Shown here piece after piece: positions 55,083-64,000 of a stretch of 64,000 nucleotides of DNA. Within the stretch, counting starts at the first letter, position 1, and each line of letters begins with the position of its first letter. The notes beneath the pieces were generated by a model. It made no database searches. It saw nothing but the letters and a program-made list of their open reading frames with translations, and was not told the DNA's origin. Made by a program: the position numbers and the translations under genes. This stretch comes from Eledone cirrhosa (lineage: Eukaryota). The stretch is taken from assembly GCA_964016885.1 (NCBI GenBank), contig OZ024760.1:5704001-5768000 (forward strand). Direction: 5' to 3'.

Positions 55083-55128
<46 letters not shown>

Positions 55129-55173
55129 TAAACAAATAATGAACAAACAATTCCTTATATTAAACAAAAAAAG

Positions 55174-55328
55174 TTCACTATTTAACGATCGTTTCTAGGG
55201 TATACATGTGCTATAATTGGTATGCATATTTAACAGATCTATGTACAAAATTATACAAAATTATACAAATTATCAAGATTAAATATACATACCTAACTCA
55301 TATATACGCCGTCTTCAGAAATAATGAA
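55174..55328 (-). ncRNA. Type-I hammerhead ribozyme with long stem II
   Basis: Same structure as 50447-50601; core and stems I and III unchanged, substitutions confined to stem II. Confidence 0.8.
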
Positions 55329-56097
55329 GTATATTTATTGATAATAACAACAATTCAAAATATCAGTTCAAAATTGACCAATGAAAACACAAAGGGTTAA
55401 AAAGCAGTTTGGTGTGTGTATATACATGTAAAACCCTACACACATTTTACAATAATGTGTGTATAATATGTATGTGCATACTAAAAAGATGGATGCAAAT
55501 AAAAAATTTCAAGGTTAATATCTCTGTAAGCTTAATGCGCTGATAAGAACGCAATGATACTTATGTAGTCAAGCATATAAATATATTTTTTTCATACTCA
55601 CACATATCAGTATAATCACACATACATGTGCGTATATATATAAATATACACATAACCACGAACACACAAACACACACACACCCCCCACTCACATTTATAT
55701 ATGTGGATATAAAATCATAAGCAAATAGAAATTAAGTCACTCACATAAACACACTGGTACACACATTTCAAGATCAAGATACAGAAATTAGGTGGGAGGG
55801 GGGGGGGAGGGGTCAGTATTAGGTTGTCAGACCAGACAGCCTAATATAAATGTATCTATAAATTATGAAAAATAAAAAAATAAAAACAATAAAATATATT
55901 ACATATAATATAATGTACATACGCATACAGATATACATACACATACGTACATGTACGCGCACATAGAGATATCTACACATACATACATACACACATACCT
56001 ATACTGTCATACACACACATACATTTACACGAACATACACATACACATATAAAAAGATAAAAATACGGACACACACACGCGCAACACATACACACAT

Positions 56098-56144
<47 letters not shown>

Positions 56145-56259
56145 TATACACACACACACATAGACTCATATATATATACATACACATACATATACTTATA
56201 CATAAACATATATATCCCACACTCATACCACCATGAAAACACATACAAACATCCAGATG

Positions 56260-56291
<32 letters not shown>

Positions 56292-56398
56292 TATATATAA
56301 ACATACACACACGTACACATATATGCATATATACACACATATATACACACATACACATATATATATATATATACACACACACATAAAATACAGACATG

Positions 56399-56429
<31 letters not shown>

Positions 56430-56525
56430 TTCATTACCCTTATATATACACATAGTATATATACATACACAACCTCACTTATACACATATACACATAAGT
56501 TATATTACAATAATAATAAAGAATA

Positions 56526-61007: not shown

Positions 61008-63079
61008 TTGAAAAAGCTCAACTAAATGTATATGGGTTTACAAAATCATACATATATATATGTATATACATAAATATAAAATTAATACACACATACAGTA
61101 CAAAAATACGAATATTTCCGTGAAAATAGGAGCAAAATTATGTAGATAAATCTACCAAGAGTTTACGGTAGTGTCCAATCCGTATGAAGAACTCAATGTA
61201 AAGACAGGAATTAATTATATCGTGTAATCATAAACTAAAAAAAACATTTAAATATTATAAACCTAATTAATAACATTATTCTAGAATTTAATTTAATTTA
61301 AATGTTAGTTAACCTATAAATTTAATTTAATTAATATTTTATTACAGATGAGAAAATATTATGTAATCATTAATTTTGAAAAACCTTTAAATATTACTAA
61401 TATATATTCAGTAATTTAATTTATAGATTAATTTTAACTTATTTTAACCTTTTATTATAATTTTTTAATTTAGTTTAACCTTTTATTATAAAATTTTTTT
61501 TATTATAATTCTTTTACAGATAAAATATAACAAAATAATATCATGTATCCTATGACGGAGAAAGAATTTTTAGTATTATTGACCTAATTAATATACATTT
61601 TGGAAATATATTTATTATTTGGTTTTAGCTTTAATCAACCTAAAACTTTAATTTTAATTTTAATTTGCTTAAAATTAGTATCCTTGTACAGACGAATTGC
61701 AGAATTTCATGTAATCATAGAATGGGAGGTGTTTTTGGATATATACCTAGTTAATATATTCTGTGCAAATTTTTTGAAAAAGATATGTATATCTATATGT
61801 ATATGTATATGTGTGTATTGTATGTGTATCTGTATGTATATTTATGTGACTATATATGTATGTATGTGTGTATATATATGTATATATATATATATATATA
61901 TGTGTATGTATATGTATATGTATGTGTATGTGTATGTATATGTATGTGTATGCGTATTAATTTTGATTTTTATTTGCATATAATTATATTATGCTATTGA
62001 TGAAATACAATATCTGCTTTATGTATTGTATACCTAATTAACATATACTAATTAACATATACTATTGAAATAAATATATAATTTTTAACTTAGTTAACAT
62101 ATAATTTATATGCTACTACCGATGTAATACTTTATTTTATTTTTATTTGGGTTTCTTTTCCCTATTATTAACTTTAATTTAGTTATAATGTAATTAATAA
62201 TCTACTACTGTTTGACTTCATAATTCTGCTTCAAATATTATAAACCTAACTAATTTACACCTTGGAAATCAATATGTTGACTATCTTTGGTTTAGTTGAC
62301 ATATGATTAATGGTATACTTTTTTATTTTGTGATGCATAGATTTCGTATTTCCTAGCATTGAAAATATGTAAGAACATACATTGAATTAAGATATGGAAA
62401 ATATTATAGGTTTCTTGAAACATATATTTACTTTGATCCCCTTCTCCAAACCCCCCCCTTTCCCCCATACTATTATCATCTGTTTTTGTAAGTGTATATG
62501 TATGAATATATGGGTAGATGGGTGTCTATATAGTTTTTTTGGTATTTATTTCTAGATATAAAAATACATATATGAGCATGTAAATATGAATGTAAGATTG
62601 AGTGTGTATATATGATTGTACATACATATGTATGTATATGTATGTATATATATGTATTATATATGTACGTATATGTGAATGTGTGGTATATATATGTGTA
62701 GGTATATGTATATATGTGTGCGTATGTGTATGCTTGTATATAGGAATATATATGTGTGTATATATGTATATATGTATATGCGTGTTTGCATGTATGTGTA
62801 TATGGGTTCTGTATATATTTGTATGTCTCTCTATTTATATGTTTATCTTCGTATCTATGTGATATATGTGTGTGTGTGTGCATGTATGCATATGTATGTG
62901 TTTGTGTGTGTTTGTATGTGTGTGTGTATATATATGTATGTATTTGCGCACACTCACATACACATATATATATATATATATATATATATGTGAGTGTGTA
63001 TGTGTGTCTGTATGTGTGTGCGTGTGTATATATGTGTATATATATATATATGTGTATGTATGTGTATGTGTGTGTATAT

Positions 63080-63119
<40 letters not shown>

Positions 63120-63258
63120 ATATAGGTGTCTATGTGTGAATATATGTCTTTATTCGTATGTGTGTATTTATATATGTTTATATTTAGGTGTATGTATGTA
63201 TGTGTATGTATGTATGTATATGTATGTGTATGTATGTATATGTGTATATGTGTGTATA

Positions 63259-63289
<31 letters not shown>

Positions 63290-63525
63290 TATTCTTTATT
63301 ATTATTGTAATATAACTTATGTGTATATGTGTATAAGTGAGGTTGTGTATGTATATATACTATGTGTATATATAAGGGTAATGAAATGTATATATATATA
63401 TATATATATATATATGTGCATGTCTGTATTTTATGTGTGTGTGTATATATATATATATATGTGTATGTGTGTATATATGTGTGTATATATGCATATATGT
63501 GTACGTGTGTGTATGTTTATATATA

Positions 63526-63557
<32 letters not shown>

Positions 63558-63672
63558 CATCTGGATGTTTGTATGTGTTTTCATGGTGGTATGAGTGTGG
63601 GATATATATGTTTATGTATAAGTATATGTATGTGTATGTATATATATATGAGTCTATGTGTGTGTGTGTATA

Positions 63673-63719
<47 letters not shown>

Positions 63720-64000
63720 ATGTGTGTATGTGTTGCGCGTGTGTGTGTCCGTATTTTTATCTTTTTATATGTGTATGTGTATGTTCGTGTAAATGTATGT
63801 GTGTGTATGACAGTATAGGTATGTGTGTATGTATGTATGTGTAGATATCTCTATGTGCGCGTACATGTACGTATGTGTATGTATATCTGTATGCGTATGT
63901 ACATTATATTATATGTAATATATTTTATTGTTTTTATTTTTTTATTTTTCATAATTTATAGATACATTTATATTAGGCTGTCTGGTCTGACAACCTAATA

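Follow-up and report, generated by a model that had tools for sequence, protein, structure and literature searches.

A probable Hydra-clade Penelope-like element in Eledone cirrhosa

We analysed a 64,000-nt stretch of the Eledone cirrhosa genome (assembly GCA_964016885.1, contig OZ024760.1, forward-strand positions 5,704,001 to 5,768,000), hereafter the window, from whose first letter all positions are counted. The right-hand end of the window very probably holds an intact, oversized retrotransposon of the Hydra clade of Penelope-like elements (PLEs), which is likely to have inserted recently into a (TA)n tract within the 3′ region of a sister copy. The family is probably undescribed; its architecture is itself already known from the Hydra clade. 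As a variant it is notable for its oversized 3′ region with microsatellites, for the 116-nt stem II of a predicted hammerhead and for its probable nesting inside a sister copy. A preliminary description of the window had called the element Penelope-like, and this is supported by a reverse transcriptase (RT) resembling that of telomerase, a GIY-YIG nuclease, a remnant of a pseudo-long terminal repeat (pseudo-LTR) and an inverted copy.

The repeat unit of 6,156 nt is made up of a 154-nt leader, an open reading frame (ORF), a 3.4-kb 3′ region and a 135-nt tail. The ORF (58545-60986, −), recognised from ORF calls, homologues and folds, encodes 813 aa with an RT and, at the C terminus, a GIY-YIG domain of Hydra-clade type. 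It had been described as uninterrupted and is so, running stop-to-stop from 61037 to 58545 (−) with its ATG at 60986. Upstream of it lie the leader (60987-61140, −), which by self-comparison occurs once in the window, and the pseudo-LTR remnant (61141-61200, −), which consists of the last 59-60 nt of the family's 3′ tail and is identical to 50258/9-50317. The 59-nt direct repeat of the tail reported previously corresponds to this remnant, 61142-61200 equalling 50259-50317 at 100%. It matches the 3′ tail of the sister copy; the main copy's own 3′ end is without that 135-nt tail. Downstream of the ORF, the 3′ untranslated region (UTR; 55120-58544, −) measures 3,425 nt from the stop to the copy's 3′ end (55120/1), in agreement with the 3.4 kb first given, and is composed of AT-rich unique blocks and TG/TA-rich microsatellite blocks.

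Beyond the remnant, an inverted, 5′-truncated copy (61200-64000, +) starts ~70 nt before the ORF end and continues past the window edge. This copy had looked identical by eye apart from repeat lengths. When the two arms were aligned (61200-64000 against 58615-55817, 2,801 vs 2,799 nt), there were 0 substitutions and one 2-nt TA indel. The absence of substitutions between arms of 2.8 kb points to a very recent insertion, and the earlier suggestion of a young insertion is supported accordingly.

A second copy, hereafter copy B (50258-55121), is probably host to the main insertion and was overlooked in the preliminary description. Its left arm (50258-52180, −) comprises a 3′ end with the 135-nt tail (50258-50392), a hammerhead-like core at 50591 and a 572-nt UTR block, and its right arm (52181-55121, +) comprises the nuclease-coding 3′ part of the ORF and the greater part of the UTR, ending in (TA)14.

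The encoded protein and its clade

The ORF is intact and, to judge from the translated sequence, has every predicted catalytic residue. YRDD is found at aa 346 and IVY...YIG at aa 692-709 of 813, and the RT core and thumb (~aa 100-465; 59592-60689, −) carry DKT, FDITMG and YRDD. Pfam gave no RT match in the ORF, the sole match being to DUF7108_C (E 0.26), and a PDB sequence search returned 0 matches. A homologue search identified 117 proteins among 7,999 scored, the best with 40% identity across the full length, and the RT-first domain order is the same in all 117. The whole-protein AlphaFold model, built from 118 sequences, has a mean predicted local distance difference test score (pLDDT) of 87, and the top eight rows of a Foldseek search with this model are all TERT structures (best 3du5, E 3.5e-8).

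The CxCX5C linker and GIY-YIG domain (58548-58994, −) were delimited by motifs and fold matches, with R718, H722, E777, N790, CxxC and CxH. Folded alone, the last 149 aa reach a pLDDT of 93.5. Among the top four fold matches of this C-terminal domain are I-TevI (Z 8.8, root-mean-square deviation 2.4, 89 aligned), T4 EndoII (Z 7.3) and UvrC (Z 5.9); Foldseek ranked the same folds first, yet with E values of 0.25 or worse, which are not significant. The nuclease R, H and E are invariant across 76 sequences. Between RT and nuclease lies a ~90-aa insertion rich in Asn, Lys and Thr (aa 483-572; 59271-59540, −), which is predicted to be disordered (pLDDT <50) and which distinguishes the element from the Hydra clade at large. 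The RT-nuclease linker of 119 aa is the longest among 57 measurable sequences (median 25). A selenoprotein reading was rejected, the ORF having no in-frame stop.

As defined by Craig et al. 2021 (PMC8557442; this and the other papers cited were used in excerpt), the Hydra clade has a C-terminal nuclease and the motifs RWK, DKT, CxCX5C, CxxC and CxH, possesses hammerheads, targets (TA)n and is without CCHH. Naiads are defined in the same study by an N-terminal nuclease, CxC and DKA, and are without canonical hammerheads, although some carry hammerhead core halves. The ORF contains RWR at aa 37 (R for K), DKT at aa 115, CxCX5C at aa 673-681, CxxC at 771-774 and CxH at 799-801, whilst GxKF/Y was not found in it. 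The CxCX5C pattern occurs once only, at aa 673, there is no N-terminal CxC, and YIG falls at aa 707 of 813. CCHH is absent from the nuclease: there are two Cys between IVY and YIG (aa 696 and 705), neither conserved in homologues, and their spacing is unlike that in the canonical rows of Fig. S7 of the same study. By eye, the ORF follows the Hydra rows of that figure, unlike the Penelope/Poseidon, Nematis and Neptune rows. Hydra-clade elements have no insertion in the fingers; the RT3-RT4 spacing here is 52 aa, compared with 50-52 in 5/5 homologues checked, none of them a Naiad sequence. In a homologue-only tree the ORF groups with five proteins at a support of 0.999; they have in common a D-S-A form of RT4, which is present in 10 of the 117 homologues and, by eye, in Hydra-1_Obim.

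The element has the same domain order, RWK-type motif, DKT, CxCX5C and CxxC/CxH as Hydra-clade families such as Hydra-1_Obim, Hydra-1_Amil and Penelope-n_HM, and like them lacks GxKF/Y. Moreover, it shares with the clade a (TA)n target and an inverted truncated copy (as in Penelope-13_HM), and near the 3′ end, where the clade has a type I hammerhead, it has a type I hammerhead-like motif with a non-standard stem II. Against this it must be said that Hydra membership is argued from motifs, the tree containing no reference clades. The idea that the family might be uncatalogued stands as far as the supplement of Craig et al., the extent of the comparison: the element is not among the families there, and 4/4 exact words taken from it are absent from that supplement, which was compared up to 400 characters per cell and which leaves out most Repbase sequences. 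Hydra-1_Obim is, by eye, a different family. The repeats of the window are reminiscent of those in octopus genomes, and if this likeness holds, an automated repeat library may already contain the family. In Octopus vulgaris, 329 recent 'Penelope' insertions amount to 1,795,539 bp (PMC13282606), which by our own division is ~5.5 kb each.

Related copies, selection and activity

Parts of the ORF were found in 14 of 18 listed sequencing runs, four of which hold half or more of its words; no RNA run is listed among those with the ORF. Organisms D-K have small word shares, and of these only D was aligned. Four runs (organisms A-D) were aligned to the window via contigs, which differ from it, for example, at 9 positions in 495 nt (organism B), 9 in 366 (organism C) and 0 in 151 (organism D). 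From organism D, 45 contigs were aligned, 36 of them <90% alike. Near-identity across runs could be a sign of either close host kinship or recent transfer. At many listed sites all four runs carry another letter than the window, and therefore the window's subfamily is not their main form. Twenty of the 36 listed ORF differences from these runs are synonymous and 16 are not, vs 19.5% expected (p 1.8e-6), a lean that would fit selection on a transposing lineage. Two points tell against giving this much weight: the differences come from 40 of 293 rows, of which 36 fall in the ORF, and transition bias was left out of the synonymous expectation.

The preliminary description considered the element possibly active. 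For the family this holds; the main copy, on the other hand, keeps just 60 nt of the upstream pseudo-LTR. It could be that the family is young and the main copy was dead on arrival, being without a full upstream pseudo-LTR and with its arm, when read through, forming a long hairpin that would be silenced. This bears on activity, not identity, and we find the case for and against it evenly balanced. In Penelope and Chlamys-3 the promoter lies in or overlaps the pseudo-LTR (PMC8557442), of which so little is left here. Conversely, the ORF is intact with all its predicted catalytic residues, and the 154-nt leader may contain an internal promoter.

A hammerhead-like motif with a long stem II

A type I hammerhead-like motif was located by descriptor and folding at 55174-55328 (−), with a predicted cut after 55184. 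Read from 55328 to 55174, it consists of a 10-bp stem I, a CUGAAGA core, a 116-nt stem II domain, GAAA and a 3-bp stem III that is palindromic, with a GUU site. The UTR had been said to end in a hammerhead; the motif is present, but ~55 nt inside the copy's 3′ end and thus not terminal. The 191-nt motif region folds at z = −4.6, with 0/200 shuffles as stable, and the corresponding region of copy B folds at z −5.1. In shuffles of the last 841 nt, the descriptor was matched in 1/3000, and in 0/3000 when stem I was at least 8 bp. A comparison of the two subfamilies revealed 0 changes in the ~40 nt of the core and stems I and III, and 4 changes in the 116 nt of stem II, of which 3 keep the pair on one side and 1 breaks a pair.

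Several observations speak against a working hammerhead. Rfam reports none at the motif, whether at the gathering threshold or at E up to 10; it also misses a short, conventional-looking hammerhead at 48035. There is no double compensatory change among the 4 stem II differences. Furthermore, the motif is without the usual G10.1-C11.1 pair, having C-A or unpaired bases at 10.1/11.1, and this pair is called highly conserved by Cervera and de la Pena (PMC4209133), who report low, dimer-dependent cleavage for metazoan PLE hammerheads. U-U mismatches at 10.1/11.1 are tolerated (Perreault et al., PMC3088659) and such a mismatch is listed for many Hydra hammerheads (PMC8557442). The core search in the latter study used a 7-17 nt spacer, and the Hydra-clade families of its File S2 have short hairpins in contrast to the 116-nt domain seen here, a length that would let the motif escape hammerhead scans with short length limits. 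Title listings gave nothing specific on extended hammerhead stem II or on nesting in UTR microsatellites. Cleavage by the hammerhead is predicted to be weak or to depend on dimerisation or on assistance from protein, if it takes place at all.

Alternatively, the ribozyme, and only the ribozyme, may be a decayed relic whose stem II has grown by hairpin expansion and which no longer cleaves. We take this to be a serious possibility, albeit one that we somewhat doubt. The bases at 10.1/11.1, the length of stem II and the lack of an Rfam score would all suit a relic, and cleavage is not needed for insertion of PAc, a Poseidon element of Anolis carolinensis, in vitro (PMC11167929). However, decay sits poorly with a core and stems I and III that are unchanged between subfamilies, with the retention of pairing by 3/4 stem II changes and with the mismatches at the same positions in many Hydra hammerheads.

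The 3′ region

At ~6.16 kb the unit is larger than any of 27 listed Hydra-clade families, which span 1,080-3,045 nt (13 are marked incomplete); the clade is generally <3 kb, as a description and not a strict criterion (PMC8557442). A single hammerhead descriptor, in which stem II was allowed up to 200 nt, was applied to 77 related loci of metagenomic origin. A hammerhead follows the stop in 43/77 of these loci at a distance of 34-462 nt (median 109), vs 3,227 nt here, with a stem II domain of 10-25 nt (median 18), vs 116 nt here. This strict scan found no downstream hammerhead in 34/77; under relaxed criteria, applied to 9 of these, 6 had a core at 78-238 nt past the stop and the other 3 had none. 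The contigs bearing these loci are short and some are redundant, so that long UTRs are under-sampled, which lessens the contrast.

No second complex ORF was found in the 3′ region, where there are microsatellite frames and two short AT-rich frames only. The region is collinear between the main copy and copy B with 3.0-4.5% substitutions, and the UTR therefore travels with the element. In a second, broken family of the Hydra clade, also in the window, the stop and a hammerhead-like motif (stem II of 31 nt) are 1,364 nt apart, and a third family has a TG/TA-rich 3′ body. Taken together, these indicate that long 3′ regions recur in this host.

The composition of the region argues for a more ordinary origin. 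Alternating-run microsatellites reach a density of 28% in it, close to the 21% found elsewhere in the window, so that the UTR may just reflect host DNA, and for its length it has fewer (TA)5+ tracts (12 in 3.4 kb) than the sequence around it (319 in 48 kb). The window as a whole is AT-rich (33.7% GC) and microsatellite-rich. In a single capture, host DNA could have come to lie between the ORF and a separate 3′ module with the hammerhead, in which case the 3.4-kb region would be passive cargo instead of a true UTR, and self-nesting due to chance. A UTR that resembles its surroundings and is no richer a target than host DNA is what such a capture would leave. We nevertheless think it rather unlikely, as the region, wherever it came from, is by now passed on as part of the element in two subfamilies, and the second and third families have their own extended 3′ regions. 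A sense strand rich in TG and poor in CA is seen in the 3′ regions of two unrelated families (386 vs 82 in 55331-58544, −; 277 vs 10 in 45921-47480, +).

Insertion history and a proposed mechanism

The pseudo-LTR remnant, inverted truncated copy and one-sided tail are all present and make up the PLE insertion pattern, in which an inverted, truncated copy usually comes before the pseudo-LTR and just one of the ends has a tail (PMC8557442). The pattern itself is textbook. An arm of more than 2.8 kb had been regarded as unusually long, yet it is an ordinary 5′-truncated inverted copy that owes its length to the long UTR. For the 3.0-kb Penelope-13_HM, an inverted truncated copy of 966 nt is listed (PMC8557442). 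Among the 77 related loci, on their short contigs, none had an inverted arm >544 nt.

Copy B is also an inverted pair, the right arm of which differs from the corresponding part of the main ORF at 8/584 nt (1.4%). Both it and the third insertion (45399-48162) have inverted arms and a tail on one end only. The 3′ end of the main copy abuts the (TA)14 in copy B's right arm, and copy B in turn abuts a TA-rich array. The (TA)n tract at the insertion site also borders the 572-nt block, which is present in copy B and absent from the main copy. A ~50-nt tandem duplication is found at the inversion junction of copy B (52079-52190). Weighing against this history, the nesting is seen at one junction only, two templates could have given rise to the arrangement in a single compound event, and the window ends before the inverted arm does.

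A mechanism can be proposed from PMC11167929 and PMC8557442. PAc resembles the present element in its RT and C-terminal GIY-YIG, its hammerhead (here predicted) and its optional tail; it differs in belonging to another clade, in that its hammerhead overlaps the ORF start and in having a tail of 30-40 nt vs 135 nt here. PAc nicks both strands of AT-rich DNA and extends both, reverse transcription starts at two internal sites bounding the tail, and its hammerhead is protein-dependent and dispensable for insertion (PMC11167929). By analogy, the protein would bind a tandem transcript and nick AT-rich DNA on both strands, with reverse transcription primed at two internal sites 135 nt apart. Two complementary DNAs (cDNAs) from one source, primed on opposite strands, would then be joined head to head at their 5′ ends, the tail being on one only. 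One cDNA would have extended through a complete unit and a further 60 nt of the following one, and the other would have stopped after ~3.5 kb. Two cDNAs from one source would yield identical arms, and the model predicts a tail on the far arm near 64,700-64,830.

Judging from the window, it is likely that copies insert into one another, carry microsatellites about the genome and acquire or shed UTR blocks at (TA)n tracts. The 12 (TA)5+ tracts in the UTR are the clade's target, so that copies can land in each other. In its strongest form, the element would provide its own landing pads: copies would preferentially insert into each other, lengthen the UTR blockwise, spread microsatellites and keep a working hammerhead with a stem II 4-5 times longer than in any related locus examined. 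We offer this as speculation and consider it, on balance, improbable. Host DNA has more (TA)5+ tracts per kb, and a preference for self is therefore not established. Recent Penelope copies in Litopenaeus vannamei move microsatellites (PMC7878876) and thus share this carriage; nesting into their own target tracts goes unmentioned, and the clade unstated, in the excerpt of that paper.

If self-nesting is real, a retroelement would be linked to microsatellite build-up in a genome rich in simple sequence repeats. Moreover, a young, intact ORF with a defined leader, tail and target is a substrate on which to test the role of CxCX5C in (TA)n targeting, and the element also suits testing whether two start sites make the one-sided tail. 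In our literature search the Hydra clade appears in few papers, mainly its describing paper, and in the literature compared in vitro reconstitution concerns a Poseidon-clade element only.

An assembly or library artefact, that is, a fold-back chimera, would also give an inverted arm with 0 substitutions across 2.8 kb, and the junction at 61200 is in no aligned contig of the four runs, although contigs show presence, not absence. We consider such a chimera very unlikely: the junction coincides with the 5′ end of the pseudo-LTR remnant, in line with the published pattern, there is a difference of one TA unit between the arms, and two further insertions in the window have inverted arms and one-sided tails, one of them with 3 differences in 519 nt. 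Lastly, PLE architecture, (TA)n preference and a pseudo-LTR and inverted structure are all common to Naiads, yet the Naiad assignment made in the preliminary description has virtually no chance and is refuted by domain order, the nuclease being C-terminal here and N-terminal in Naiads. Also against it, the motif is DKT and not DKA, CxC is missing from the N-terminal part and there is a hammerhead-like motif, itself non-standard; CxC, DKA and IFD are found in Naiads, which lack a canonical hammerhead. The Cys-rich linker and terminal CxxC/CxH cited in favour of a Naiad are marks of the Hydra clade.

Other repeats in the window

The second Hydra-clade family is represented at 42575-45030 (−) by a 5′-truncated, frameshifted fragment of the RT end and nuclease, with ~40% aa identity to the main ORF and a core at 42756. 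A palindromic pair of its 3′ ends lies at 41269-41700, with hammerhead-like cores at 41453 (−) and 41607 (+). The third insertion (45399-48162) is PLE-like without an ORF and consists of 519-nt inverted arms (3 differences), a 1.6-kb TG/TA-rich body and a ~68-nt one-sided tail; it carries a short conventional hammerhead, with cores at 45458 (−) and 48035 (+). An isolated CTGATGA core with a 6-bp hairpin and GAAA, with no standard stem III and missed by the descriptor, was seen at 41856-41920 (+). Arrays of TACATAAA and (TA)n are confined, within the window, to 39000-50258, where they occur in both orientations around PLE insertions. The TACATAAA arrays could be either a local satellite that attracts PLE insertions or a product of PLE activity.

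Fragments at 28050-28376 (+) and 39908-40495 read like the C-terminal end of what we take to be RTE-type long interspersed nuclear element ORFs. Tandem satellites with units of ~87, 27 and 112 nt occupy 20380-22650, 22800-24290 and 32398-33030, respectively. A repeat resembling a short interspersed nuclear element (SINE) and headed by a tRNA is present in five copies that are 93-97% alike (761-1084, 11471-11829, 25306-25617, 27565-27922 and 28526-28681). A search with a SINE-derived pseudo-ORF returned no homologue, and Atlas scores were just 0.76. An Rfam tRNA match at 27574-27637 falls inside one of the SINE-like copies.

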